Source: a phage
Strand: one strand, 5' to 3'
Length of the DNA: 39,711 nucleotides
Sequence record: PZ379184.1
Below are positions 5,557 through 35,976 of this stretch, piece by piece. The notes under the pieces are model-generated. The model made no database searches, was not told where the DNA came from, and saw nothing but the letters and a program-made list of their open reading frames with translations. How positions within the stretch are numbered: position 1 is the stretch's first letter; each line of letters starts with the position of its first letter. The translations under genes were made by a program, and so were the position numbers.

Positions 5557-5571
5557 CAACAGGAGAAGTAT

Positions 5572-5802
5572 ATGTCAATGAAACTTGTAGCACACAACAG
5601 GGTATTCAACGATGGGTCGGGACGTTGCCATGTAGAGCTGACTTATAAGGATTTAATCATTCTCCGAGACAGATTACAGTCGGGTGTGACTGGGTGGATT
5701 CAACCTAACGAGTACAACCTTATAGCTTCGATTGATGAAGTTCTTAACGCGTGGATGGAAGACGAGCGCATTCAGTATCCGTCATTCCCTCTAATTAGAT
5801 AA
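5572..5802 (+). CDS. Hypothetical protein (76 aa)
   Basis: SD AGGAG before ATG; no counterpart recognised in T7 between genes 1 and 1.1. Confidence 0.55.
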   Translation: MSMKLVAHNRVFNDGSGRCHVELTYKDLIILRDRLQSGVTGWIQPNEYNLIASIDEVLNAWMEDERIQYPSFPLIR

Positions 5803-5812
5803 GGAGAGAGTT

Positions 5813-6028
5813 ATGAAATTTGCACACAAGCATACTGGCGTTAATGGTGGGACTCAAATCGTGACCGTAACAGAACACAACGGCAAGGGTCTGGTGAAGA
5901 CCACGGTCATCCCTACCGAGATGTCCAAGCAGCTTAACATCCCGTTCAAGACTCTTGTATATCTTGTGGAATCCAGCCACGAGAAATACCTGAAAGACGC
6001 AGTGACCAAGCTGGAGCAGACCAAATGA
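5813..6028 (+). CDS. Hypothetical protein (71 aa)
   Basis: SD AAGGAGAG before ATG; no homolog recognised. Confidence 0.55.
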   Translation: MKFAHKHTGVNGGTQIVTVTEHNGKGLVKTTVIPTEMSKQLNIPFKTLVYLVESSHEKYLKDAVTKLEQTK

Positions 6029-6102
6029 CAGACCTACAGTTACTGGCCTTGTGGCTGGGAGCACTCGCAGTATTCACTTTAATCCAAAGCAGAAGAGGTT
6101 AA

Positions 6103-6125
6103 CCTAAACTATCACTATAGGATTA
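6103..6125 (+). promoter_or_regulatory. Phage RNAP promoter (phi1.1 position)
   Basis: AAACTATCACTATAGGATTAG; consensus match. Confidence 0.75.
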
Positions 6126-6165
6126 GACTCAAGGTCATGACTCAAAGTCGTGGCCTTCATGATTA
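6125..6165 (+). promoter_or_regulatory. RNase III processing site candidate (R1.1-like): AGACTCAAGGTCAT..GTGGCCTTCATGATTA
   Basis: Resembles recalled T7 R1.1 (ACTCAAGGTCAT...GTGGCCTTTATGATTA); same element recurs at 13224-13261 and 36548-36588. Confidence 0.65.
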
Positions 6166-6195
6166 ACCCTAACTCATTCAATCAGGAGCTACACC

Positions 6196-6375
6196 ATGTA
6201 TCAGAACACTATCAACTTCGAGCGAATCCGTGAACGTCAGCAGACTGAAGATTATATTCCGAAGGGACGCAAGCTGAACAAGACCAAGCGTGGTGGAGGT
6301 GTCAAGGGTGCTTTCCGTAACGCTGAAGGCAAAGACTCTATGGTCAACCAAGAGAAGTATTTCGTAGGAGCGTAA
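6196..6375 (+). CDS. 1.1: gp1.1-like small basic protein (59 aa)
   Basis: Contains KGRKLNKTKR, matching the recalled T7 gp1.1 motif; below the ORF-track cutoff. Confidence 0.65.
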   Translation: MYQNTINFERIRERQQTEDYIPKGRKLNKTKRGGGVKGAFRNAEGKDSMVNQEKYFVGA

Positions 6376-6378
6376 GAC

Positions 6379-6666
6379 ATGAGCATGTTCTCAAGAGCGC
6401 ATAGCGGCAACCTGAACACTCTTCGTACAGCCATCCACAACTGGCAGACCGAGACGGACTACAATGCAGAGGTCAGCACTTGGTTTGACCAAGTGATGCA
6501 CAGGACTTGTATCAAAGCTGTAATAGTCCACGTTCACACACGAGAGGTCCTCATTGAGAAGGACTTCACGGAGTACCCGAATATCCACGACGAAGATGTG
6601 CAGACCGTAGCGGTTGCCACTTGGTTTAACAAACAGTTCAACGACTACACTGGTCGATTCCTTTAA
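6379..6666 (+). CDS. 1.2: gp1.2-like protein (in T7, inhibitor of host dGTPase)
   Basis: Shares SGNL near the N-terminus and HDEDV with recalled T7 gp1.2; position between 1.1 and ligase. Confidence 0.65.
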   Translation: MSMFSRAHSGNLNTLRTAIHNWQTETDYNAEVSTWFDQVMHRTCIKAVIVHVHTREVLIEKDFTEYPNIHDEDVQTVAVATWFNKQFNDYTGRFL

Positions 6667-6683
6667 TTCTGGAGACATTAACG

Positions 6684-7769
6684 ATGATAACTATTAAAAC
6701 TAACCCGCACCGCGCTGTAGATTACTCTGAGTCTGGCGTTAAGAAGGCTCTGGAAGCTGCCGGGTCGCTGGAAGCTGAAGTGAAGTACGATGGCGTCCGG
6801 TTGAATCTTCTGGTCTTCCCTACTGGTGAGACTCAATGGTTGAGTCGTGAGTCTAAACCTCTCCCAGCTCTTGAGTGGCTGTCAGTCCTTACCAACATCG
6901 ACAACATCGTTGATGACCAGCAAAAAGCTAGCGACTGGCGGTGGTTCCTTAAACAGGCTGGCTACGAAGGTACGGGCCTGATGATTGACGGTGAGGTAAT
7001 GGTTCCTGCAACCGACTTCAACACTTCCTCAGGTCTAGTCCGTACCATGTGGTCAGACACTAAGAACTACGCTTGGAATGGCAACCCCGATGCTGACATC
7101 GACACCAAGAAGAAGCATAAGGTCCCTTTCCATCTGGCAACCGACCACATCCGCGTGGTTGTCTACGGTATCGTTGACCTTAACGTCATCAACGACCCGA
7201 AAGCCGAAGGTCCTATCCATAGCGTCACACGCCTGAAGGCCGAAGCTATCGTCCCTCTCCTCCAGAAATACTTCCCGGAAATCGACTGGGTTCTGTCTGA
7301 GTCACACACGGTCTATGACCTTGAGTCGCTCAACTCCCTGTACGAAGAGAAGCGTCTGGAAGGACACGAGGGTCTGGTGGTCAAGGACCCACTGGGTAAA
7401 TACAAGCGCGGTAAGAAGTCAGGAATGTGGAAGATGAAGCCTGAGGAGACCATCGACGGGACCGTATGTGGCCTCGTGTGGGGGACTCCTGGTAAGGCCA
7501 ACGAAGGCAAGGTCATTGGCTTTGAGGTACTGCTGGAGGACGGCATGGTAGTGAATGCGTGCGGACTGACTGAGGAGCAGAAGGATGAGTTCACCGCTTC
7601 CGTTCTAAACTGGCGTAAGGGGTTAGGCTCAAGCACTATTTATGGAAACCCGTTTTCTGGTAATCAGGTGGAAGTCCTATTCATGGAGCGCTTCCCTGAT
7701 GGCTCCCTTCGTCATCCCAGCTTCAAGTGCTGGCGTGGAACGGAAGACAATCCAACCGTTAAGAGCTAA
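6684..7769 (+). CDS. 1.3: ATP-dependent DNA ligase (T7 gp1.3 homolog)
   Basis: Adenylation motif KYDGVR; 361 aa versus 359 aa in T7; gene order. Confidence 0.92.
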   Translation: MITIKTNPHRAVDYSESGVKKALEAAGSLEAEVKYDGVRLNLLVFPTGETQWLSRESKPLPALEWLSVLTNIDNIVDDQQKASDWRWFLKQAGYEGTGLMIDGEVMVPATDFNTSSGLVRTMWSDTKNYAWNGNPDADIDTKKKHKVPFHLATDHIRVVVYGIVDLNVINDPKAEGPIHSVTRLKAEAIVPLLQKYFPEIDWVLSESHTVYDLESLNSLYEEKRLEGHEGLVVKDPLGKYKRGKKSGMWKMKPEETIDGTVCGLVWGTPGKANEGKVIGFEVLLEDGMVVNACGLTEEQKDEFTASVLNWRKGLGSSTIYGNPFSGNQVEVLFMERFPDGSLRHPSFKCWRGTEDNPTVKS

Positions 7770-7778
7770 CTAAACGTC

Positions 7779-7815
7779 AACCCAGTGGTCTTCGGACTGC
7801 TGGGTTTCTTTGCTT
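7779..7815 (+). terminator. Rho-independent terminator after the ligase gene (TE-like)
   Basis: GC stem CCCAGTGGTC/GACTGCTGGG with TTCG loop followed by TTTCTTTGCTTTG. Confidence 0.75.
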
Positions 7816-7852
7816 TGTGCTAGAAAGCTATCGTCTGGGCCACCAGCATGAC

Positions 7853-7875
7853 ACTAAGCTATCACTATAGGAAAA
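7853..7875 (+). promoter_or_regulatory. Phage RNAP promoter
   Basis: AAGCTATCACTATAGGAAAAC; consensus match. Confidence 0.7.
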
Positions 7876-7901
7876 CCATAACTCGACCTAAGGAGGCCGA
7901 T

Positions 7902-8159
7902 ATGTTTAAGAACTTAATGTTCAATCGTTATACCAGTACATTCCACCTGTCTCACAACCCATTCGCTTGCATTAAGCGTAACGAGAAGCTGGGCTACTTC
8001 GGGAAGGCCGTTAAGCTGTCACCTACAGTCTTCGCTCTGATTACTCCGAGCAAAGCTGAAGAGGCTCTCCAGAAGCGTGAGTCCAACGTACCTGTGGTCT
8101 ACACTAAGTGGCCTCGCGTTCGTCTGTTCGTTGAGGTAATAAAGGAGCTAACAGTATGA
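7902..8159 (+). CDS. Hypothetical protein (85 aa) at the T7 gene 1.6 position
   Basis: SD AAGGAGG 6 nt before ATG 7902. The track ORF from 7848 would include the promoter, so the internal ATG is preferred. Confidence 0.6.
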   Translation: MFKNLMFNRYTSTFHLSHNPFACIKRNEKLGYFGKAVKLSPTVFALITPSKAEEALQKRESNVPVVYTKWPRVRLFVEVIKELTV

Positions 8160-8629
8160 ACGCACTTGAACAAGAGATTATCATTAAGTTGGTAGATAAT
8201 AACGAAGGTCGCCCAGATGATTTGAATGGCTGCGGTATTTTCTGCCATAATGTCCCTTGCTACCTCTGCCCTGTAAATATCAATAAAAAGATAACCTTAG
8301 GTGAAATCCGAGCGATGGACATACGTAAGCCTAAACTGGAGAAACCAGAGGTAACTACTACAGACGACCAGCCTTACGCTAAGGCTATCGACGACGTACG
8401 CAAGCCGTCCCACTATCAGGTCTTTGACGGTGTGGAGTCCATTGAGATTATCGCTCGGTCCCTGACTGTCAGCGAGTTCCGTGGTTTCTGCATGGGTAAC
8501 GTCCTGAAGTATCGACTCCGAGCTGGTAAGAAGTCCGAGCTGGCTACTATGGAGAAGGACCTAAACAAAGCGGCCTTCTATCAGGAGCTGTTCGACCTGC
8601 ATAAAGGTAAGTGCTATGCTGCCGAGTGA
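8156..8629 (+). CDS. 1.7: gp1.7-like nucleotide (dGMP/dTMP) kinase
   Basis: IIKLVDNNEGRPDDLNGCGIFCHNVPCYLCP, KITLGEIRAMD and GNVLKYRLRAGKKSEL match recalled T7 gp1.7. Confidence 0.85.
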   Translation: MNALEQEIIIKLVDNNEGRPDDLNGCGIFCHNVPCYLCPVNINKKITLGEIRAMDIRKPKLEKPEVTTTDDQPYAKAIDDVRKPSHYQVFDGVESIEIIARSLTVSEFRGFCMGNVLKYRLRAGKKSELATMEKDLNKAAFYQELFDLHKGKCYAAE

Positions 8630-10075: not shown

Positions 10076-10545
10076 TGACTCAGAAATATAGACTTAAGGT
10101 TAGTTGCTGCGGGTGGCCTAAAGGTACTATCGTTACGAAATGTGCGAAAGACCCGTGTACAGCATCTGGAATTGTTCTGGTGGAATCCACTGAGCGTGGC
10201 CACTTCAAGCACGGAGCAGCAGGTTATAACACTCAGCCTGACGGTATGTGGGGGGCGTGGGTTGCAAAAGCACATCTTGAGGAAATCGTAGAGGATAAAC
10301 CTCAAGTCATGCCAGCTTCGAGCGTACCGCCTGTGACTGTGAAGCGTGAAGTCCTGACCATCAACAAGATTGGTGTAGGGCAGACGTTCATCGTCCACGG
10401 TAAGCCTGACGAAGTGTACGTGAAGATTAGCAACTCTCACGTCTTCAACCATAAGTTGCTCCAGATGCACACGACTGACGCACATCGCTTCCAGTCACAT
10501 CTGAATCTAGTGGTCGTAGAATTGGTGGTGTACAATGGTAAGTAA
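10075..10545 (+). CDS. Hypothetical protein (about 156 aa) inserted between endonuclease I and lysozyme
   Basis: SD AAAGGAG 7 nt before ATG 10075 (track ORF starts at an upstream GTG, 10072); overlaps the lysozyme start by 11 nt. Confidence 0.6.
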   Translation: MTQKYRLKVSCCGWPKGTIVTKCAKDPCTASGIVLVESTERGHFKHGAAGYNTQPDGMWGAWVAKAHLEEIVEDKPQVMPASSVPPVTVKREVLTINKIGVGQTFIVHGKPDEVYVKISNSHVFNHKLLQMHTTDAHRFQSHLNLVVVELVVYNGK

Positions 10546-10993
10546 GGTACAGTTCAACCCACGGTCCCGGACTGACGCTATCTTCGTTCACTGTTCGGCT
10601 ACCAAGCCAGATATGGACATCGGGGTAGAGACCATCCGTATGTGGCACAAGCAGCAAGGATGGCTGGACGTAGGCTACCACTTTATCATCAAACGTGATG
10701 GCACTGTGGAAGAGGGTCGCCCGGTCAATGTCGTAGGGTCACACGTTAAGGACTGGAACTCCAAGTCCGTAGGCGTCTGCCTTGTAGGTGGAATTGACGC
10801 TAAGGGCAAGTTTGAAGCTAACTTCACTCCGGCCCAGATGAACTCACTGCGCAACAAGCTGGCTGACCTGAAGGCCCTGTATCCTCAGGCAGAAATAAAA
10901 GCACACCATGATGTAGCACCTAAGGCGTGTCCAAGTTTCGACTTGCAGCGCTGGCTATCTACCAATGAACTGGTAACTTCCGACCGTGGTTAA
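10535..10993 (+). CDS. 3.5: N-acetylmuramoyl-L-alanine amidase / T7 lysozyme (gp3.5 homolog)
   Basis: VQF..R..TDAIFVHCSATKP, WLDVGYHFIIKRDGTVEEGR, HHDVAPKACPSFDL and C-terminal ELVTSDRG match recalled T7 gp3.5. Confidence 0.93.
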   Translation: MVSKVQFNPRSRTDAIFVHCSATKPDMDIGVETIRMWHKQQGWLDVGYHFIIKRDGTVEEGRPVNVVGSHVKDWNSKSVGVCLVGGIDAKGKFEANFTPAQMNSLRNKLADLKALYPQAEIKAHHDVAPKACPSFDLQRWLSTNELVTSDRG

Positions 10994-26409: not shown

Positions 26410-26880
26410 ATGTATATTCGCAAGGCTACGGAACAGGATGTCCACTACTTTCTGTGGCATCTTTCAGCAGATGATGTTAATGAGTGCAAAGCAAACTATG
26501 GGTCAACCGTTGGTCTCTCTGAAAGACTGCTTAAGCATCTATCTCCGTCATCTGTGGTTTTAACGAATGGTGTAGGCGAAGTGTTTGCCTATGGTGGAAA
26601 CCAAGGGGATAACGTATGGTTCTTGACTTCAGGTCTGGTCAACAAGCTGAGACCTAAAGAGAAGCGAGAGTTCATAAAGCGTATCTCTGAGTACAGGGAC
26701 TTAATGTTAGACCAATACGGGACCATCTGGAACTACGTGTGGTCAGGCAATAAGTCTCACATTAAATTCTTGAAGTTGCTTGGGGCTAAATTCCATGATG
26801 ATTGGACTATAAGCCCAGTAACTGGTGATCGTTTTCAACTATTCACTATCTCTAAGGAGGACGTATGTGCGAGCCAGTAA
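26410..26880 (+). CDS. 13: Internal virion protein A (gp13 position)
   Basis: SD AAGGAG; position and size; homology not verified. Confidence 0.6.
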   Translation: MYIRKATEQDVHYFLWHLSADDVNECKANYGSTVGLSERLLKHLSPSSVVLTNGVGEVFAYGGNQGDNVWFLTSGLVNKLRPKEKREFIKRISEYRDLMLDQYGTIWNYVWSGNKSHIKFLKLLGAKFHDDWTISPVTGDRFQLFTISKEDVCASQ

Positions 26881-27452
26881 GTATCGGCATGGGCATTATG
26901 ACTGTAGCTGGTGCCACTATGTCCGCATCTCAACAGGCAAAGGCTGAGGGTGCTGCTATCGACGCTCAGAACCGGCAGGCTCAGGAGATGATTAAACAGA
27001 TGAACTACTCTGACGCCAACCTGAGGATGCAGGAGCGAGACCTTAAGGAGCAACAGGTCGCTGAACTGACTGAGACAACTCTGAATGGTGTTCGCAATCA
27101 AGGCATGGTCCGAGCAGCAGTGGCTGAGTCCGGTCTGGAAGGTAACTCTATGGATAGGATTGAACGTCAAGTCGCGGGAGACACAGTCAAGGAGAGAGCC
27201 GGGATTACCGAAAGCTACAACCGTGACTATGCGGCTATCTTCGGGAACCGTATCGCCAACATTGAGAACACCAAGTCTGCTATCCGTGGTCAGGGTAAAA
27301 TCATCAAGACCAGCCCACTGGCTCATGCACTTAATGTTGCTACCGCCGGGATGCAAGGTTACGCCGCTGGTAAGTCAATCTCTGGAGCGTCCAGCTCTGG
27401 TGGTGCTGCACCAATTAGTGCTGCTAAAGGTACACCTACAGGTCATAGCTAA
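26865..27452 (+). CDS. 14: Internal virion protein B (T7 gp14 homolog)
   Basis: 195 aa versus 196 aa in T7; MC start, SMDRI and C-terminal AAKGT match recalled T7 gp14. Confidence 0.8.
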   Translation: MCEPVSIGMGIMTVAGATMSASQQAKAEGAAIDAQNRQAQEMIKQMNYSDANLRMQERDLKEQQVAELTETTLNGVRNQGMVRAAVAESGLEGNSMDRIERQVAGDTVKERAGITESYNRDYAAIFGNRIANIENTKSAIRGQGKIIKTSPLAHALNVATAGMQGYAAGKSISGASSSGGAAPISAAKGTPTGHS

Positions 27453-27463
27453 GAGGAGGACTA

Positions 27464-29746
27464 ATGGCTAGTAATATTGAATCAGCTCTGGCTAATCGGA
27501 CTATGGGTCGCGGCAGAGCGCCGGGTAAAACTATCGCCGTCAACTATCAAGCAGCCAACGTTCAGGCTCCGACTGGGGACTCCGGTCTGGCTCGTGCGTT
27601 AACCAACTTCGTTGAGTCTGGGACTGGATTGTACAAGCAGTTCAAGGACGAGGAGAAGACCAGAGCTGACGAGCGGTCTAACGAGATTATCCGTAAACTG
27701 ACACCTCAGCAAAGACGTGAGGCTATCCAGAACGGCACATTGCTGTATCAGGATGACCCTTACGCTATGGAAGCACTTCGAGTCAAGACTGGTCGTAATG
27801 CTGCCTTTTCTGTAGACGACGAGATTAACGTTAAGATTCAGAACGGTGAGTTCCGTACACGTCAGGACATGGAAGAGTATCGCCACCAGCGACTTCAGGA
27901 CGCCGCTAAGTCCTATGCTGAAGAGGCAGGTATTAACCCTACAGACGAGTTCTTCCAGCGTGGTTTCAACGATAACATCACAGACCGCAACATCGCTATC
28001 TACGGGTCATTCAATAAGTATTTCAGCAAGCAGTCTGAAGAGACAGCAATGTTGAACACTCGTATTGAGATGAACTCGTTCCTTAACGATGGGGACCTGA
28101 TGCGTTCGCCTGAGTCTGGAAAGACCTTCATGGCCTACCTTCGGGATGGACTAACGACTGCCGCTATCCCTTCGGACCAGCGAGCACGAGAGGTCATTGC
28201 CCAGACGGTCCGTGACGCAATCCAGAAGTCAGGCGGCTCAAACTTCCTACAGCAAGTACGAGGCGAGCGAATCACCCTTAACGGCGTGGATGCTACAGTC
28301 GAAGAGATTGTAGGACCTGATGTCTTCAACGCTGCTATTGTTGAGGCACAAGGAACTGAGTACAAGCTGGTGGCTAAGTATCAGGAAGACTTAGCGTTAG
28401 GCGTGCAGTCTGCGATTCTTCAGGACGACCCAACCATCGGTCTGGCCCAGATTCAAAAACTCAAGGAGCAGAACAACCTGCTTCAACCGGGTGAAGAACT
28501 CACACCTCAGCGTCAGATGCTTATTAATGCCGAAGCCAGCTTACTGGAAGCGGTAAAGCGTAAGTCCGCTGAACAGGCGAAGGAGAACACTAAGTTAATC
28601 CAGACCCAGAACAAGCAACTGGTCATAGACCAAGTATATCAGCGACGGCTGGCTGGTGACAACGTGTCCACTAACTATGAGGACCTTCCGGTCTCAGATG
28701 CTACAGGCGAGTTCAAGCGTTCTGACATGAACAATTATGCGTCTGCCAAGCTACAGCAGATTGACCAGATGGACATCCCTGAGGCTGCTAAAGACGCGCA
28801 AAAGGTTGCATTGTTAAGGGCTGACACTAACAATGGTCCGTTCCGTAATGCCTTCCAGACGCTGACTCAGGACGCTGCTGGTGAGTGGCAAGCTGCGGTC
28901 ATCCGTGGGCAGTACGACCCAGACAAGATGCAACGCTTCGAATCTCTTCGTCGTGCCTACACTCAGGACCCTTCAAGTTTTGCTGCTCTGTATCCTGACC
29001 AAGCTCAGTTGTTCTCTACGTTCGACCAGATGGACAAGATGGGTCTGGACCCTCAGACGATGATTGAAGCTGATAAGCAAGCTGCAAGTCAAAGCCGTGA
29101 GATGCGCATGGAGTCAGACAAGGCGTGGCAGGAGTTGAAGAACGACTCTCGGAATAAGGACCTTTCGCGTCTTCCTACGTCTCTAGACTCAAGTGCTCGT
29201 AAGGTCTGGGACTCATGGTACTATCGTACAGGTAACGCTGACGCTGCAACTCAGCAGACTCAACGCTGGCTGAATGAGAATACAGTAACGTTCCAGTCTG
29301 AAGGTTCTGACGGTAAGTCCATCGGCATGGTGTCCAAGCACCAGCTTATGGTAGGGGATAACCCAGAGTCATGGCAGGTTGGTCGAGACATTATCGACAC
29401 CGCTCGTAAGCAGCTCATTAAGGCCAACCCTTGGGTAGTGAACTCTCAGTTGTCCGTTGTTGAACAGAACGGCTCTATCTTCCTCCAAGACGCTACAGGG
29501 ACTATTCGTATTCGGTACGATAAAGAACTTGTAGGTAAACTCTACCGCGAACAACAGCAGAAGGCACAAGATGCCGCATACGCTCAGGCAGAACGTGACG
29601 CTAACAAGCGAGCGCGTATAGTCGGTACTAAAGCTGCTGGTGACAAACGTCGAGCTGACCGAGAGGCCAACATCGAGAAGCGCGGTGGGATGTATAATGA
29701 CGTCTCACTGGAGGGTATCGCAAACGTACTAATTGGTAAGGAGTAA
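27464..29746 (+). CDS. 15: Internal virion protein C (T7 gp15 homolog)
   Basis: 760 aa versus 747 aa in T7; gene order. Confidence 0.85.
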   Translation: MASNIESALANRTMGRGRAPGKTIAVNYQAANVQAPTGDSGLARALTNFVESGTGLYKQFKDEEKTRADERSNEIIRKLTPQQRREAIQNGTLLYQDDPYAMEALRVKTGRNAAFSVDDEINVKIQNGEFRTRQDMEEYRHQRLQDAAKSYAEEAGINPTDEFFQRGFNDNITDRNIAIYGSFNKYFSKQSEETAMLNTRIEMNSFLNDGDLMRSPESGKTFMAYLRDGLTTAAIPSDQRAREVIAQTVRDAIQKSGGSNFLQQVRGERITLNGVDATVEEIVGPDVFNAAIVEAQGTEYKLVAKYQEDLALGVQSAILQDDPTIGLAQIQKLKEQNNLLQPGEELTPQRQMLINAEASLLEAVKRKSAEQAKENTKLIQTQNKQLVIDQVYQRRLAGDNVSTNYEDLPVSDATGEFKRSDMNNYASAKLQQIDQMDIPEAAKDAQKVALLRADTNNGPFRNAFQTLTQDAAGEWQAAVIRGQYDPDKMQRFESLRRAYTQDPSSFAALYPDQAQLFSTFDQMDKMGLDPQTMIEADKQAASQSREMRMESDKAWQELKNDSRNKDLSRLPTSLDSSARKVWDSWYYRTGNADAATQQTQRWLNENTVTFQSEGSDGKSIGMVSKHQLMVGDNPESWQVGRDIIDTARKQLIKANPWVVNSQLSVVEQNGSIFLQDATGTIRIRYDKELVGKLYREQQQKAQDAAYAQAERDANKRARIVGTKAAGDKRRADREANIEKRGGMYNDVSLEGIANVLIGKE

Positions 29747-29750
29747 CATA

Positions 29751-32700
29751 ATGGCGACTCGTGGTATTCGCAATAACAATCCGGGTAACATCCGGGTAAG
29801 TAAGGACCAATGGGAAGGAATGACTGGAGATGATGGCGCATTCGTCACCTTCGATAGTCCAGAGTCTGGCGTCCGAGCTTTAGGTAAAAACCTGCTGTCC
29901 TACGGTCGCCAAGGCTATGACTCCATCGAGAAGATTATCAACCGATGGGCACCTCCTAACGAGAACGACACTAAGGCTTATATCGACTCAGTGGTGGCTG
30001 CAACTGGTATTCCAGCTACCCAGAGTCTCGACCTATCGAACCCGGACACCCTGTCTGCTCTGGCGCAAGCTATCAGCTTCCATGAGACAGGCTCCCGGTA
30101 CAATCCTGAAGTCTATCAGAAGGGAGTCGAAAGAGCACTTAACGGCATTAGCCCAAAGACTCCACCAGTAAGCGCTAACGTATTTGACGCACTCACGGAA
30201 GGACTCAAGGCTAAACCTAAAGTAGCTCTGGGTGAGAACCTTCCGACCGCTGCTGGTCTAAACATTGAGGGTCAAGCACCTGAAGCTCCCAACGAATCGT
30301 TCGGTGAGATGTTCTATAAGTCTACTGGCGAGACCATGCAGGAACGAGAGGATCGTTCTACGTGGTTCGGTTTCGACTCGGCTACAGAAGCTGAAGTGAA
30401 GAACTCTATGGTCGGCGTGGCTATCCGCGCTGGTCAGACCGAGGACTCACTTGATGTCATTGGTGATGTGTTCAACCCTACCCGCTGGAACAACCATAAG
30501 TGGTCTCGTGAGGAGCTGGACCAGATTCGTAACGCTGGAGTTCTCCCTCAGTATTACGGTGTCATTACTGGTGGCTCTCCTCAGAACCTGACCGAGCTTA
30601 TTAACTTGGCGCTTGAGAACCAGAAGTTGGACCAAGAGAAGGCCAAGGCTGGGACTGGTGCTCAGCTAGCAGCTGGTGTGATTGGGGCTGGTGTAGACCC
30701 GCTGACCTACGTTCCTATCGCTGGACAGGTTGGCAAAGGTGCGAAGCTGGTCAACAAGATGTTCACCGTGGCTGCTCAATCTGGAGCACTTGCTGGTGTA
30801 TCAGAGATGGCCCGTACCTCAGTGGCTGGTGGGGATGCTCATGTGGCTGAAGCTATCCTTGGTGGTGCTCTCTTTGGTGGTGGTATGACTGCCATAGCTG
30901 ATGGGTTAGGCAGAGCCTTAGGTCGCAACACTAATGAGTTTGCTGGCCCAGCTACACGTCTGGAAGCTCGTGAGACCGCTCGTAACGTTGATGGTCAGGA
31001 CCTGTCTCGTCTTCCTATTCAGGAAGGTGAGCAGACCTTTAGTCATCAAGGCGTTAAGTTCGCTGACGTTCCTAATGAGCCGGGAAGTGTACGATTAGAA
31101 GATGGTTCAATCCTGATTGGTGAGAACCCTCTGAACCCTAAGACACGTCAAGTCTTCGACGAAGTGATTGAGCCGGAGCGTGCCGCTGCTGGTGTGAACC
31201 TTGGTGGACTTACCGAGATTGGACTGAAGCTGCTTCGGTCTGAGAACCCTGAGATTCGTGGAGTAGCTGCTGACTTAGTTCGTTCACCGACTGGTATGCA
31301 GTCTGGGGCCTCAGGTAAAATAGGGACAACTGCGTCAGACGTGTTCGAGAGACTTCGTGCTGTGGACCATCGGTTTTACAACGACATCGACGATGCGGTT
31401 ACTGAGGCGCTAAAGGACCCGTACTTCCAGACAGCATTCTGGAGAGACTCTGGAGCATTCCGTCAGGACATCTACCAGCGCGTGTCTATGGCTATCGAAG
31501 ATGGTAGCGGAAACCTGAAGGCTGAACTGACTCCGGGAGAACTGAAAGTCTATGACCTGCTGAAGAACCAGTTCGACGCCAAGCGTGAGATGATGGAGAA
31601 CCCAGCTATGTTTGGTCGCCCAGACGCTCAGCCTATCTTTCCGGGTAGCCGCTTCAAGGGGACCTACGTCCCTCATGTGTATAGCAAACAGATGAAGGAG
31701 CTGTACATCAAGGAGCTTGGGAGTCCAGAGGCGTTGCAGGAGGCCATCAAGAAGTCATGGTTGACCAGCTATGCGTCTCGACCTGAAGTCAAGAAACGCG
31801 TGGACGAGGCACTCTTAGAGGCTGACCCTACGTTGACTCCAGAGGGACTTGCTGCTGCGGTCGATAAGTACGCCAACGATAAGGCTTACGGTATCTCTCA
31901 CACCGAGCAGTTCGAACGTTCATCCGTAATGGAAGAGAACATCAACGGTCTGGTTGGTCTGGAGAACAACAGCTTCCTTGAGGCTCGTAACCTGTTCGAT
32001 AGTGATATGTCAATCGTCCTGCCTAACGGTCAGACCTTCAGTGTCAACAACCTGCGTGAGTGGGACATGGACAAGATTGTCCCGGCCTACAACCGTCGAG
32101 TTAATGGCGATATTGCTATCATGGCTGGTACAGGCAAAACCACGAAGGACATGAAGGACTTGGTTGAGACGATGATGAACAAGGCTGGGGATGACGGTAA
32201 GTTGAAAGGTGAGGTATCTACCTTACGTGACACCCTGAAGATTCTCACTGGTCGTGCTCGACGTGATGGTGCTGATGATGCTGCCTTCGCTACCGTGATG
32301 CGCACGATGACAGACCTATCGTTCTTCGCTAAGAATGCCTACATGGGTGTTCAGAACTTAACGGAGATTGGTGGTATGCTGGCTCGCGGTAACGTTCGTG
32401 CAATGCTTCATGGAGTCCCGATGTTCCGTGACCTAGCCTTCCGTAACAAGAAGGTCGGAGCCTCAGAGATTAAGGACCTTCACAATGTTCTCTTCGGTAA
32501 GGAACTTGATGACTCAATCCGCCCGTCTAAACAGGATGTCATTGACCGTCTGCGCTCCTATAGCGACCTAGGTCGCGGGGCAGCTACAGCTCTGGGGACT
32601 GCCAAGTATTACACTGGTGAACTTGCAGTGCGCTCTCCGTTCACTAAAGTCCTCAACGGTACGACCAACTACCTGTTAGATGCTGGACGTCAAGGCTTCC

Positions 32701-33638
32701 TGTCTGACATCGTGGAGCATAGCCTGACTGGCAGTAAGCGTAAGTTCGATGACCGCTGGCTGAAGACCGCTGGTATCTCTGACGAGCAGTGGAAGGGCAT
32801 TAAGTCCCTAATCCGTGAGTCAGTGACTCGTGGTCCAGACGGGAAGTATACCATCAAGGATAAGAAGGCATTCAGTCAGGACCCAAGGGCTATGGACCTG
32901 TGGCGTATGGGTGATACCATCGCTGACGAAACGTTACTCCGTCCTCATAAGCTGTCCAACATGGACGCCAAGGCTTATGGCCCACTCGCTAAGACTGTCC
33001 TTCAGTTTAAGAACTTCGTCATCAAGTCCATCAATGGGCGAACCATGCGTACCTTCTATAACGCCACGAAGAACAACCGAGCGATTGACGCTGCACTATC
33101 GACCGTGATGTCTATGGGTCTGGCTGGTATCTACTACATGGCTCAGGCGCACGTCAAGGCTTATGCTATGCAGGATGGTCGAGACCGAGATTATCTCAAG
33201 CAAGCTCTGGACCCAACGATGATTGGCTATGCGGCCCTGTCCCGTAGTTCACATCTGGGTGGACCACTTGGGGTAGCTAACATTCTAGGTGGCATCGCTG
33301 GGTATGAGGACACTAAGATGCTCCGTTCGTCTATCCTACCTCGTTCTCCTACAGAGAAGCCTGAACGTGCCATCGCGTATGGTGCAGCTACAAGTGACCC
33401 TGTGATGAATGTTGTTGGTAACTTCTTGGAGCAGGTTCCAGCTTTCGGATATGCTGCTAACGTTGGCGCTTCGGCTTACAACTTGGCTGGCTACCTCAAG
33501 GCTGATACTCGTGTTAACGAGCGTGACTACATGACCGGGATGTATAATACGTTCCGTGAACTGGTTCCGAACGACCCAATTACCCAGAAACTATTGCTTG
33601 GAACGTTTGAGGAGCAGGGTATCCACATCAAGGACTAA
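29751..33638 (+). CDS. 16: Internal virion protein D (T7 gp16 homolog) with a divergent N-terminal domain
   Basis: Residues after about 200 are collinear with recalled T7 gp16 (SVAGGDA, RLEARETARN, DLVRSPTGMQSGASGK, ILTGRARR, C-terminal VPNDP). The N-terminal 130 aa (GIRNNNPGNIR...) do not match the T7 SLT domain. Start at ATG 29751 after SD AAGGAG. Confidence 0.9.
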   Translation: MATRGIRNNNPGNIRVSKDQWEGMTGDDGAFVTFDSPESGVRALGKNLLSYGRQGYDSIEKIINRWAPPNENDTKAYIDSVVAATGIPATQSLDLSNPDTLSALAQAISFHETGSRYNPEVYQKGVERALNGISPKTPPVSANVFDALTEGLKAKPKVALGENLPTAAGLNIEGQAPEAPNESFGEMFYKSTGETMQEREDRSTWFGFDSATEAEVKNSMVGVAIRAGQTEDSLDVIGDVFNPTRWNNHKWSREELDQIRNAGVLPQYYGVITGGSPQNLTELINLALENQKLDQEKAKAGTGAQLAAGVIGAGVDPLTYVPIAGQVGKGAKLVNKMFTVAAQSGALAGVSEMARTSVAGGDAHVAEAILGGALFGGGMTAIADGLGRALGRNTNEFAGPATRLEARETARNVDGQDLSRLPIQEGEQTFSHQGVKFADVPNEPGSVRLEDGSILIGENPLNPKTRQVFDEVIEPERAAAGVNLGGLTEIGLKLLRSENPEIRGVAADLVRSPTGMQSGASGKIGTTASDVFERLRAVDHRFYNDIDDAVTEALKDPYFQTAFWRDSGAFRQDIYQRVSMAIEDGSGNLKAELTPGELKVYDLLKNQFDAKREMMENPAMFGRPDAQPIFPGSRFKGTYVPHVYSKQMKELYIKELGSPEALQEAIKKSWLTSYASRPEVKKRVDEALLEADPTLTPEGLAAAVDKYANDKAYGISHTEQFERSSVMEENINGLVGLENNSFLEARNLFDSDMSIVLPNGQTFSVNNLREWDMDKIVPAYNRRVNGDIAIMAGTGKTTKDMKDLVETMMNKAGDDGKLKGEVSTLRDTLKILTGRARRDGADDAAFATVMRTMTDLSFFAKNAYMGVQNLTEIGGMLARGNVRAMLHGVPMFRDLAFRNKKVGASEIKDLHNVLFGKELDDSIRPSKQDVIDRLRSYSDLGRGAATALGTAKYYTGELAVRSPFTKVLNGTTNYLLDAGRQGFLSDIVEHSLTGSKRKFDDRWLKTAGISDEQWKGIKSLIRESVTRGPDGKYTIKDKKAFSQDPRAMDLWRMGDTIADETLLRPHKLSNMDAKAYGPLAKTVLQFKNFVIKSINGRTMRTFYNATKNNRAIDAALSTVMSMGLAGIYYMAQAHVKAYAMQDGRDRDYLKQALDPTMIGYAALSRSSHLGGPLGVANILGGIAGYEDTKMLRSSILPRSPTEKPERAIAYGAATSDPVMNVVGNFLEQVPAFGYAANVGASAYNLAGYLKADTRVNERDYMTGMYNTFRELVPNDPITQKLLLGTFEEQGIHIKD

Positions 33639-33702: not shown

Positions 33703-35976
33703 ATGTCCACGATTACACAATTCCCTTCAGGAAACACTCAGTACAGGATTGAGTTCGACTACCTAGCCAGAACGTTTGTTGTTGTTACTCTGGTGAATAG
33801 CTCTAACCCTACCCTGAACCGTGTACTGGAAGTTGGTAGAGATTACCGATTCATTAATCCAACGGTGATTGAGATGTTGATTGACCAATCGGGTTTCGAC
33901 ATCGTTCGTATTCACCGTCAGACTGGAACTGACTTAGTGGTAGACTTCAGGAATGGCTCAGTATTGACAGCTAGTGACCTGACCAATGCAGAGCTTCAGG
34001 CTATCCATATTGCAGAAGAAGGTCGAGACCAAACTGTTGACTTAGCGAAGGAATATGCCGATGCTGCTGGTAGCTCTGCTGACAACGCTAAGGATAGCGA
34101 GGACGAAGCACGACGAATCGCTGATAGTATCAAGGCATCTGGTCTAATTGGCTATATTACCCGTCGCTCCTTCGAGAAAGGCTTCAACGTTACAACATGG
34201 AACGAGGTCCTGCTATGGGAAGAGGATGGTGGGTATTACCGCTGGGATGGTGCTCTTCCAAAGAACGTTCCTGTCGGTTCGACCCCTGAAGCTACTGGAG
34301 GTGTTGGTCTGGGTGCATGGGTTAGCGTTGGTGATGCGTCATTACTAGCAAGGCTAAAAAGCAATAGCGCTGGTGAGGGCGCCTCCCTTATTACATTTGA
34401 AAATGGCAATTCTGTTGAGAGTCTTTCCGACAGTGATGGTGCTAAAAACATAGGTAGTGGTGGGAGAAGTTTGCATGAACGTAATAATGATATTAAGCAT
34501 TCTGGGGATTTCCCTACCTTACAAGCTGCGATAGATTCATCGTTACCAAAAAATGACTTACTTATTTCCCCTGGTGAATATACTGAAAAAGTTACTATTG
34601 GTAACGCACAGTTAAAAGGCGTTGGTGGGGCTGCAGTACTAAAAACACCAGCAGACTTTACAAACACTGTTCAGGTTAATTCATCTACACCCCATTGGCA
34701 ATTCCGCCATAGTGGTGGTTTTGCTATAGATGGCTCTGGAACAATCGGGAGCGCAGGCATTAGTTTTGACCCGTCAGACCAATATTCTGGGCGCCATAAT
34801 TTTAGTGATGTATACATCCACAACATCAATAAGGCCCTTCAGAAGCCTTCCGGGAACATCGGTAATACATGGAGAAATATTGGGATATCTACGTGTGATT
34901 GGGGTTACTGGGCGCAGTCTGCTTCTGAGATGCACTTAGGCACCGATACCCTTCAGAACATGCACTTTGATGGCATTAGTACTTACTGCGTTTATATGAA
35001 TGCTACAGTAGGTGCAGTGCCGGGTACATTCGGAGGTGGGGTAGGCGGTTGGTGGATTAAGGATAGTATCATGGAATCCTCTGGCGGCGGTGGCATCTAT
35101 CTCAAGAACAAGGCCGGAGACTGTCCTTCTGCTCCGTGCGGTGTATCCAATGTATGGGTGGAAGCTATCGCTACTACCCCAGCTGTTAATGTAGATGGCG
35201 TAGCTCAGAAGCCTCGTGTGCTTAAGCTCATTGACACCAGTATCTTCTTTGCAGAGTACACGTATCTGAACAACGTAGAGCTTCAGAACTCCAACCTTGT
35301 TGCTTATGGATGTCGTGTAGATAACTCAGATGGACACATGGATATCTCTGTAGATGCCAGCAGCAGCTTTGTGGCTGAGCAATTGTACCTGAACGGTAGT
35401 TCTGGCAAGGATGTAATGGTGCGCTCTGTAGCGGCCCAGACGGGTATGATTGGGCAGAGCTGGACACCTAATATGAGTATGCGTGGTTACCTGCCGGAAG
35501 GATACATCTATCGAGTATCTGGTAATAAGCTAGTAGCTAAACCATTCGATAGCGGTACTGCTGTGTTCGGCGGTACGGCAAGCAGTTCTGGCAGCTTGCA
35601 CCCACAAGGACAGTTATCCCAGAACTGCATGTATTTTGAATTCCAAGGTGCTGCTGAGTTTGAACTTACTGATGCAGCATGGCAGGTAACCTCAGGTAAT
35701 TGGTACGTATGGGGCATTAGCACTGAGCTGCTTCAGGGAACTCCTGCGAGCTTCCGTATTGGTGGGGATATCGGCGTAGGTGAAGTCTTTACTAAGCAGG
35801 GTCAGTGGGTGAGTACCTTCGGCGTAGCTCAAGCAAGTGCTTCAGGTGCAGTGAACCTCAGACTAAGTACTGCTGCAGGTGGCGTAGTAATGCGCTTAGC
35901 TGACTACTTTGTTGCTGAGTTCGCTACTCAGGCAGAGGCTATGCGCTTCGTGAACAGTAGGCGTGCTCTGCGTTAA
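33703..35976 (+). CDS. 17: Tail fibre / tailspike protein (gp17 homolog); N-terminal adaptor plus divergent C-terminal receptor-binding domain
   Basis: N-terminal 150 aa share FDYLARTFVVVTL, DYRF, LVDF.NGS.L.A.DL, IHIAEE with recalled T7 gp17. The C-terminal 600 aa are Gly/Ser/Asn-rich with no T7 counterpart. Confidence 0.88.
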   Translation: MSTITQFPSGNTQYRIEFDYLARTFVVVTLVNSSNPTLNRVLEVGRDYRFINPTVIEMLIDQSGFDIVRIHRQTGTDLVVDFRNGSVLTASDLTNAELQAIHIAEEGRDQTVDLAKEYADAAGSSADNAKDSEDEARRIADSIKASGLIGYITRRSFEKGFNVTTWNEVLLWEEDGGYYRWDGALPKNVPVGSTPEATGGVGLGAWVSVGDASLLARLKSNSAGEGASLITFENGNSVESLSDSDGAKNIGSGGRSLHERNNDIKHSGDFPTLQAAIDSSLPKNDLLISPGEYTEKVTIGNAQLKGVGGAAVLKTPADFTNTVQVNSSTPHWQFRHSGGFAIDGSGTIGSAGISFDPSDQYSGRHNFSDVYIHNINKALQKPSGNIGNTWRNIGISTCDWGYWAQSASEMHLGTDTLQNMHFDGISTYCVYMNATVGAVPGTFGGGVGGWWIKDSIMESSGGGGIYLKNKAGDCPSAPCGVSNVWVEAIATTPAVNVDGVAQKPRVLKLIDTSIFFAEYTYLNNVELQNSNLVAYGCRVDNSDGHMDISVDASSSFVAEQLYLNGSSGKDVMVRSVAAQTGMIGQSWTPNMSMRGYLPEGYIYRVSGNKLVAKPFDSGTAVFGGTASSSGSLHPQGQLSQNCMYFEFQGAAEFELTDAAWQVTSGNWYVWGISTELLQGTPASFRIGGDIGVGEVFTKQGQWVSTFGVAQASASGAVNLRLSTAAGGVVMRLADYFVAEFATQAEAMRFVNSRRALR

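Follow-up and report, generated by a model that had tools for sequence, protein, structure and literature searches.

The internal virion protein D (gp16) of phage T7 begins with an SLT-type lytic transglycosylase head, which T7 needs to internalise its genome where the peptidoglycan is highly cross-linked (PMC8954989). A K1F-like (Kayfunavirus) coliphage (PZ379184.1; the whole 39,711-nt stretch that was analysed is referred to below as the window) encodes a gp16 homologue with a different head, and the question raised by this locus is which domain took the place of the transglycosylase and what it may do there. Our overall reading, to which we assign a probability of about 0.8, is that the SLT head was exchanged for a peptidoglycan glycosidase of the Enc34 type that is used during DNA ejection.

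Gene 16 and the junction between head and body

An open reading frame at 29733-33638 on the plus strand, to which all features named here belong, contains gene 16 (29751..33638). Based on the ORF list, alignment with T7 gp16 and a match to phrog_342 (E = 0), this gene encodes internal virion protein D, the inner-membrane component of the ejectosome, with 1295 residues. Its true start is the ATG at 29751, because the Shine-Dalgarno sequence AAGGAG (29738..29743) read from the DNA lies 7 nt upstream and overlaps the end of gene 15, whose stop codon occupies 29744-29746, and because both the K1F gp16 annotation and PDB chain 9vvp_L (1295 aa, beginning MATRG) start at the identical residue. Upstream lie homologues of gene 15 (27464..29746), assigned by synteny with K1F and T7 as the 760-residue periplasmic tunnel protein, and of gene 14 (26865..27452; Pfam T7_gp14, 1.7e-46), the outer-membrane component of the ejectosome. 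The order 14-15-16-17 is that of K1F and T7, and gp17 carries the T7 tail-fibre N-terminal domain.

A preliminary description of this DNA had proposed that the first ~130 residues of gp16 do not align with T7 gp16 while the rest is collinear with it, and both statements held. A phmmer search of the PDB aligned residues 128-1294 with T7 residues 155-1314 (7eyb_I and 6yt5_G; E = 0, 1308 bits), and identity to T7 over the gp16 body is ~53%; ahead of residue 128, comparison of residues 1-140 with T7 gp16 1-165 by BLASTP gave E = 0.54. A near-identical protein (~99%, 1295 aa, 'Gp29') accounts for 4 chains of PDB entry 9VVP, 'Core proteins of the bacteriophage E1004'. The capsid-core location is established for the E1004 protein and, given the ~99% identity, probably applies to window gp16 as well.

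In a MAFFT alignment of gp16 from the window, K1F, MmP1 and T7, the first block common to SLT-type and Enc34-type proteins was the motif G-I-S/T-P-K, which corresponds to G132-I-S-P-K136 in the window (30144..30158) and to G159-I-T-P-K163 in T7. The swap junction lies just upstream of this motif, where the gp15-binding 'molecular tape' of T7 starts. The T7 tape comprises residues 157-228 and binds gp15 in the periplasmic tunnel (PMC8954989); its equivalent in the window aligns to residues ~128-206 (30132..30368) and would, by extension from the T7 literature, function likewise. GC content was level at 0.49-0.53 across the junction, a compositional trace of recent horizontal acquisition thus being absent, and a scan for promoters and terminators near the junction returned nothing above chance.

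Family identity and active site of the head

Residues 1-~140 matched no Pfam family at E <= 1, and a search of the head against NCBIfam likewise gave no match. The domain search of the N-terminus proposed in the preliminary description was nevertheless productive: phmmer aligned residues 3-124 with PDB 7Q47, the Enc34 endolysin, at E = 2.8e-14, and the head matched phrog_873 at 5.7e-56. An AlphaFold2 model (pLDDT 89.3, pTM 0.84) displayed a compact, mainly helical fold that was superposable on 7q47, its best Foldseek match (TM-score 0.80, E = 1e-9), and a profile made from head homologues retrieved 18,771 cluster representatives. The head is clearly a member of the Enc34/M4Lys/PM2-P5 family (NCBI CDD PHA02564, 'V virion protein'), with the Enc34-type muralytic domain spanning residues 1-127 (29751..30131) in place of the T7 SLT domain (T7 residues 1-~156). 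The interval suggested earlier, 29751-30150 (residues 1-133), is an almost exact fit to this domain, and the N-terminal peptide quoted for it was exact. The earlier inference that SLT had been swapped for a different cell-wall-active module is likewise borne out by the match to a muralytic family, but the term 'unidentified' is not, since a crystal structure (7Q47) and two active relatives are known for the family (PMC8943055, PMC7143992). The head swap is an ordinary module exchange involving an already characterised family.

We considered whether the head could instead be a highly diverged SLT/GH23 lytic transglycosylase, inherited vertically from a T7-like ancestor and never swapped. Its position is the same, its size is comparable (127 vs ~156 aa) and a conserved glutamate is present, while a very remote kinship of the family with the GH73/GH23 lysozyme fold, involving circular permutation and a spatially equivalent glutamate, is argued for in the Enc34 study (PMC8943055). 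Yet a diverged SLT domain retaining the catalytic glutamate, the outcome that the preliminary description had set against its own proposal, was found by none of four approaches: the head lacked a Pfam SLT match at E <= 1, whereas the positive control, T7 gp16 1-165, matched this family at 2.8e-31; BLASTP gave the E of 0.54 noted above; hhalign of the two heads returned a probability of 0.14%; and the fold search related the head neither to SLT nor to GH23, the model failing to qualify as a GH23 lysozyme-like fold. Moreover, the helix bearing the catalytic glutamate is circularly permuted relative to GH23 (PMC8943055), this residue being E112 here, close to the C-terminus of the domain, and E37 in T7, near the N-terminus. 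Finally, relatives of the domain in unrelated phages reach 50-57% identity, far closer than any SLT-type gp16, even though the body is 53% identical to that of T7. Vertical descent from an SLT head is effectively refuted. Relocation of the SLT domain to another part of the genome was also rejected, as a tblastn search of the window with the T7 head gave a best E of 4.9, and the gene 15 homologue had no Pfam match and no recognisable lysozyme domain.

Residues of the Enc34-type active site are conserved in the head. The N-terminal signature of the family, R-G-I-R-N-N-N-P-G-N-I-R (residues 4-15; 29760..29795), is also found in Enc34; in an alignment of 117 homologues, N8, N13 and R15 were invariant and the remaining positions from R4 to G12 as well as I14 were at least 90% conserved. 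Alignment to 7Q47, combined with the numbering of the Enc34 study (PMC8943055), equates W66 (29946..29948) with Enc34 Trp79, a substrate-positioning aromatic residue, Y77 (29979..29981) with Tyr95, and E112 (30084..30086), within the motif H-E-T/N-G, with Glu131, the proposed catalytic glutamate. Y77 and E112 were invariant across the 117 homologues and in gp16 of K1F, IMM-002, Pisces, ENT2, SH4 and MmP1, while W66 was retained in 6 Kayfunavirus gp16 proteins and is Tyr in MmP1. In the sections of the Enc34 study consulted, Trp79, Tyr95 and Glu131 were assigned via structural superposition and conservation rather than mutagenesis (PMC8943055). The head is under purifying selection, with dN/dS of 0.04-0.13 in 5 pairwise comparisons between the window and other Kayfunavirus gp16 genes.

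Purifying selection cannot separate catalysis from binding, and, like residue conservation, it would also be compatible with a role in structure or binding alone. The head might accordingly be catalytically inert in gp16, serving the periplasmic tunnel as a 'wing' that binds peptidoglycan or lends structure, or helping to pack the core inside the capsid. Sugar binding could not be demonstrated in the Enc34 crystals (PMC8943055), and the enzymatic activity of T7 gp16 is dispensable under many conditions. However, the head keeps all three proposed catalytic residues as well as the RNNNPGN motif, E112 and Y77 without exception, whereas inactivated enzyme domains usually lack the catalytic acid, and standalone relatives are active lysins. 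We therefore regard an inert head as improbable. Since the T7 enzymatic head is dispensable in standard laboratory conditions, a phenotype for the window head may be conditional.

Predicted activity and use at entry

Muralytic activity within the family was measured for two members, Enc34 ORF39 and M4Lys, and is predicted for the gp16-borne copies. Once freed of its C-terminal transmembrane domain, Enc34 ORF39 lyses cells of E. coli, P. aeruginosa and H. alvei whose outer membrane has been permeabilised (PMC8943055), and M4Lys without its transmembrane domain breaks down E. coli murein, yielding a glucosaminidase-type product (PMC7143992). The M4Lys data were interpreted as glucosaminidase plus possible endopeptidase activity, with muramidase given in one figure legend (PMC7143992); these readings of the family's bond specificity disagree. 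By analogy with what was proposed for Enc34 and M4Lys, the window head is probably a hydrolytic N-acetylglucosaminidase rather than a lytic transglycosylase.

Annotated members of the family are mostly endolysins in lysis cassettes (SSU5, Chivirus, JBD30), in keeping with the possibility that the gp16 head is a late auxiliary endolysin that aids lysis from within rather than an entry enzyme. This we consider highly improbable, because the N-terminus of gp16 has neither a signal nor a signal-anchor-release sequence, the near-identical E1004 protein is part of the capsid core (9VVP), and fusion to the ejectosome at the position of the T7 entry enzyme favours a role in entry. In addition, the window encodes an Rz-type spanin and a separate lysis enzyme, a T7-lysozyme-type N-acetylmuramoyl-L-alanine amidase (10535..10993; Pfam Amidase_2, 1.1e-16), which shows that the lysis endolysin is another protein than gp16. 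The family also has members in virions: P5 is a structural protein of PM2, GP11 of NO16 has been found in virions, and the domain occurs within a Uetakevirus minor structural protein, tape-measure-type families and a giant virion protein.

The head of window gp16 is most likely a virion-borne peptidoglycan hydrolase for DNA ejection, as judged from its relatives and its position. According to this model, gp16 would be stored in the capsid core and leave through the tail at infection, carrying an all-helical Enc34-type glycosidase domain of ~127 residues fused just before G-I-S/T-P-K. Once in the periplasm, the head would cut glycan strands locally, with E112 acting as the catalytic acid and W66 and Y77 positioning the substrate. 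Local cleavage would open the murein layer to passage of the gp15-gp16 tunnel, and the remainder of gp16 would then insert into the inner membrane, as in T7.

Distribution, significance and comparison with known systems

A tblastn search of whole gp16 against 50,697 phage records, split at 60% identity, found the Enc34-type head in ~225 of 1318 records with a T7-type gp16, or roughly one in six. Records at 60% identity or above (~227) were covered from residue 1-17 among the matches listed, save those with a cut gene, whereas in the 1091 records below 60% the alignment began no earlier than residue ~123 (between 123 and 132 in most of the matches listed). Carriers are Kayfunavirus phages of E. 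coli, Salmonella, Citrobacter, Enterobacter, Klebsiella and Cronobacter. Among the T7-like phages examined, the Morganella phage MmP1 was the only carrier outside Kayfunavirus; its gp16 body is nearer to T7 (54-67% per alignment segment) than to Kayfunavirus, yet its head is of the Enc34 type. The domain was also present in 16 records with organism names beginning with Providencia, presumably Providencia phages. In a neighbour-joining tree of 42 domains (200 bootstraps), built to count acquisition events, the Kayfunavirus clade received 97% and every deeper node 10% or less.

Many head-bearing records carry annotations transferred from T7, such as 'lytic transglycosylase', 'peptidoglycan lytic exotransglycosylase' or 'MltF', and this label is very probably wrong for the Enc34-type enzyme family. 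As neither Pfam nor NCBIfam has a model for the family, Pfam-based surveys of ejectosome lysins would score such phages as lacking a hydrolase; a recent survey listed 78 of 205 Autographivirales genomes without an identifiable lysozyme domain in their ejectosome proteins. The domain is not linked to T7-like gp16 in the papers found to mention 7Q47 or in the titles and abstracts of 32 of 37 papers listed for Enc34, and a 2026 preprint that cites E1004/9VVP gives no detail on the gp16 head; the E1004 structure paper may already describe the Enc34-type head.

Whether the exchange was adaptive rather than neutral is a separate matter. A hydrolytic glycosidase of other bond specificity could open murein that a lytic transglycosylase handles poorly, such as that with O-acetylated MurNAc, which prevents formation of the 1,6-anhydro bond. 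Morganella is among the group with O-acetylated peptidoglycan, and the host of MmP1 together with the 16 presumed Providencia phage records is suggestive in this respect. Alternatively, altered products could avoid anhydromuropeptide signalling. We nonetheless consider the adaptive reading doubtful. Independently of it, the gp16 head can be named, with T7-derived annotations very probably mislabelling many database records, and the mosaicism already known among ejection proteins gains a clean same-position example. T7 and K1F-type phages form a natural pair in which the importance of entry-enzyme chemistry can be tested, and, with Kayfunaviruses under development for therapy, the 127-residue domain is a candidate small lysin active against Gram-negative bacteria.

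Compared with T7 gp16 (PDB 7EYB, 6YT5, 7K5C), window gp16 is the same protein from residue 128 onward, with the same gene order and head position and a similar head size, and its near-identical homologue is also resolved in the capsid core. In contrast, the T7 head is of the SLT/GH23 type with its catalytic glutamate at position 37, whereas the window head is of the Enc34 type with glutamate at 112 and probably works by hydrolysis, not by lytic transglycosylation. The closest relatives of the head are ORF39 of Hafnia phage Enc34 (7Q47) and M4Lys of Salmonella phage BSPM4; unlike these, the window domain heads an ejected virion protein of 1295 residues, has no adjoining transmembrane anchor and presumably works from the periplasmic side at entry. 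P5 of the corticovirus PM2 and its Vinavirales homologues (such as NO16 GP11) belong to the same domain family and are likewise virion-associated, not lysis enzymes alone, but they are small, standalone proteins of tailless, membrane-containing phages and are not fused to an ejectosome component. In GH73 N-acetylglucosaminidases (FlgJ, C. difficile Ecd09610, T. maritima TM0633), sequence similarity to the head is absent and the helix order is permuted, the β-lobe being replaced in the head by a loop or short hairpin. Relocated lysozyme domains in ejection proteins of other podoviruses (the K1E/K1-5/SP6 and phiKMV-like gp15 homologues) similarly illustrate that the ejectosome can exchange its peptidoglycan-degrading module and is mosaic in this respect; in those phages a lysozyme- or transglycosylase-type domain resides on another protein, whereas in the window the position was kept and the enzyme family changed.

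Identity of the gp16 head

The open reading frame at 29733-33638 (+ strand, from the ORF list) contains gene 16, which in fact starts at the ATG at 29751; AAGGAG (29738-43) and the stop codon of gene 15 (29744-46) lie ahead of it, and this start agrees with both the K1F annotation and the 1295-residue PDB chain 9vvp_L. The preliminary description had held that the N-terminal ~130 aa of gp16 cannot be aligned with T7 gp16, and that the rest is collinear with it. Both statements were borne out: T7 gp16 aligned only from residue 128 (T7 155) to 1294 (phmmer, all PDB sequences), and BLASTP of residues 1-140 against T7 gp16 1-165 returned E = 0.54. The interval proposed there, 29751-30150, brackets the head (residues 1-127) well.

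That description further took the head to be a different, unidentified cell-wall module, and called for a domain search of the N-terminus. The first part holds. While the T7 head, serving as a control, matched Pfam SLT at 2.8e-31, the head of the window's gp16 matched nothing in Pfam at E <= 1 and nothing in NCBIfam, and a profile of 117 homologues compared to the T7 head gave a probability of 0.14% (hhalign). The Pfam and hhalign results rule against a diverged SLT domain, and no SLT-like sequence was found elsewhere in the window. The second part does not hold, since residues 3-124 match PDB chain 7q47_A, 'Endolysin', with E = 2.8e-14 (phmmer, all PDB sequences). [quoted passage not shown] Likewise, phrog_873 'endolysin' matched at 5.7e-56; the head domain also occurs in phrog_992 'head protein', phrog_2276 'tape measure' and phrog_7182 'tail injection transglycosylase', and the PHROGs label for gp16 already reads 'internal virion protein with endolysin domain'. 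An AlphaFold2 model of residues 1-140, with the 117 homologues as input, folds into five helices and a short hairpin (pLDDT 89.3, pTM 0.84), and Foldseek ranked 7q47 first (TM-score 0.80, E = 1e-9). We regard membership of the head in the Enc34-type family as almost certain.

In the model (me0d01c604f37), the short beta-hairpin is predicted at residues 24-34 (29820-29852), with strands 24-27 and 31-34. Its site in Enc34 is a long loop that stands where the lysozyme beta-lobe would be, and the crystal structure was described as devoid of beta elements (PMC8943055), in contrast to the predicted hairpin of the gp16 head.

Superposition with GH73/GH23 enzymes led to the assignment of Glu131 of Enc34 as catalytic acid, and of Trp79 and Tyr95 as the residues that position the substrate (PMC8943055). 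After allowing for the PDB chain index, which is shifted by one relative to that paper, the HMMER alignment places these residues at E112 (30084-86), W66 (29946-48) and Y77 (29979-81), respectively, all on the + strand. Across the alignment of 117 sequences Y77 and E112 do not vary, and neither do N8, N13 and R15, which belong to the R-N-N-N-P-G-N-I-R motif. All three counterparts are present in gp16 of K1F, IMM-002, Pisces, ENT2 and SH4; gp16 of MmP1 has Tyr at position 66 and Met in place of R15. Head dN/dS was 0.04-0.13 in five pairwise comparisons of the window with other Kayfunavirus gp16 genes, and the head is under purifying selection.

The phage and the extent of the exchange

Over its first 600 bases, gene 16 shares 97.7-99.5% identity with the best Kayfunavirus coliphages among the matches listed, including PSK1, ECG4, LS2 and vB_EcoP_F, and gp16 residues 1-130 share 97.7% protein identity with K1F (tblastn). 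Since gene order is also T7-like (RNA polymerase, SSB, endonuclease I, amidase, then genes 14, 15, 16 and 17), the source belongs to the genus Kayfunavirus, among the podoviruses of the T7 family. Direct terminal repeats >150 bp are normal in T7-like genomes, and none of at least 60 bp was found between the ends of the window (1-39711); thus, the repeat may have been collapsed or trimmed in assembly. Separate lysis genes, for an amidase endolysin and an Rz-type spanin, lie elsewhere in the genome. By its Pfam domains, gene 17 (33703-35976, +) encodes a 757-aa tailspike with the T7 tail-fibre N-terminal adaptor (Phage_T7_tail, residues 10-115), followed by a TSP1/Gp66 receptor-binding N-terminal domain (155-211) and a C-terminal part without a family assignment. 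Because the product is far shorter than the annotated endo-N-acetylneuraminidase tail protein of K1F, and the Pfam search matched no endosialidase family, receptor specificity probably differs between the two phages.

PV615262.1, 'Acinetobacter phage vB_Aba_01KA', matches the window at 97.8% identity across the initial 600 bases of gene 16 (database match H20). Its gp16 shares 98.8% protein identity with ours (H86) in three separately annotated pieces, which points to a questionable host name, frameshift errors in the record, or both.

T7-type gp16 was found in 1318 phage records (tblastn, full protein). The alignment begins at the N-terminus in ~227 (at least 60% identity), and in the 1091 below 60% it starts at residue ~123 or later, mostly 123-132 among the matches listed; the exception is SPN1S, where the match is confined to the head. 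With the head alone as the query, 753 records matched, and 223 of these reached 60% identity or more. Morganella phage MmP1 (Minipunavirus) carries the same head type at 44% identity (gp16 at 4456-8394 of its region), on a body nearer to T7 than to Kayfunavirus. This mismatch would imply either that the exchange happened more than once or that lineages recombined with one another; a bootstrap NJ tree did not separate one from two head acquisitions by the Kayfunavirus and MmP1 lineages.

In the alignment, the first block common to gp16 of the window, K1F, MmP1 and T7 is G-I-S/T-P-K (residues 132-136, 30144-30158, +; T7 159-163). In T7, residues 1-156 form the transglycosylase domain and 157-228 the 'molecular tape', which fixes gp15 in place within the periplasmic tunnel (PMC8954989). 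Taken together, the shared block and these limits argue that the swap replaced exactly the enzymatic head and kept the assembly-relevant part whole. No shift in GC content marks the junction, and the exchange is therefore old. Compared to gp16 of IMM-002, Pisces, ENT2 and SH4, head plus tape (29751-30440) is 78-86% identical in amino acids, and the remaining ~1065 residues are 92-94% identical. In these comparisons dS is raised only in the head, where it reaches 1.0-1.5; the tape has 0.6-0.8 and the body 0.76-0.90. Kayfunavirus heads apparently fall into two allele types, 'RNNNPGNIR' and 'RNNNIGNIR', which, together with the raised divergence, hints at recombination within the genus, of the head at least.

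Other contexts of the domain

The domain serves as endolysin in holin-endolysin-spanin cassettes (SSU5, Chivirus), and occurs as a small standalone protein in Mu-like Pseudomonas phages, in a 937-aa Uetakevirus minor structural protein (56% identity), in a giant virion protein of an Achromobacter phage, and in the tailless Vinavirales. The Vinavirales counterpart is PM2 structural protein P5; another, NO16 GP11, was detected in virions. When a profile of the family was run against 1.84 billion cluster representatives, it recovered 18,771 members at E <= 0.001 (13,479 at E <= 1e-10), in which the domain is standalone, N-terminal, internal or C-terminal within many architectures.

One protein of the family (P0121) has four matched stretches. 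Among the head's three closest metagenomic relatives, the closest (P0001) resembles a gp16-type fragment, and the other two (P0002 and P0003) carry a hydrophobic N-terminal segment ahead of the domain. The latter look like signal-anchor (SAR-like) endolysins, which would represent a third delivery route beside the C-terminal transmembrane domain of Enc34 and fusion to a virion protein.

Proposed function and comparison with known lysins

A near-identical protein forms four chains of PDB 9VVP, 'Core proteins of the bacteriophage E1004'. The catalytic domains of Enc34 (PMC8943055) and of M4Lys from Salmonella phage BSPM4 (PMC7143992) degrade Gram-negative murein, and the T7 gp16 head helps genome internalisation where murein is highly cross-linked (PMC8954989). 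We propose, with a probability of roughly 80%, that the swapped-in Enc34-type head acts as the entry peptidoglycan hydrolase: once ejected, it would cut glycan strands locally, such that the gp15-gp16 tunnel could cross the wall. By analogy, its chemistry is probably that of a hydrolytic N-acetylglucosaminidase rather than lytic transglycosylation; the Enc34 authors concluded N-acetylglucosaminidase (PMC8943055), and the M4Lys data leave other bond specificities possible (PMC7143992).

Kayfunavirus gp16 proteins with this head are labeled 'peptidoglycan lytic exotransglycosylase', 'peptidoglycan transglycosylase', 'endo-type membrane-bound chitopentaose' or 'hypothetical' (GenBank examples: MN518894, OQ860982, KX689784, MK903277). 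These labels look carried over from T7 and unfit for the domain present. In practice, our findings serve to correct 'lytic transglycosylase' annotations, which are widespread, and draw attention to a very large lysin family for which neither Pfam-A nor NCBIfam has a model.

The literature searched, which did not extend to 9VVP's own paper, held no link between Enc34-type domains and T7-like gp16. The enzyme family itself is already known and structurally characterised, and it is well established that peptidoglycan-hydrolase modules are exchanged or relocated among the ejection proteins of podoviruses (T7 work: PMC8954989). The gp16 head thus places an already known type of lysin in an equally familiar virion-lysin role, at the site that SLT occupies in T7.
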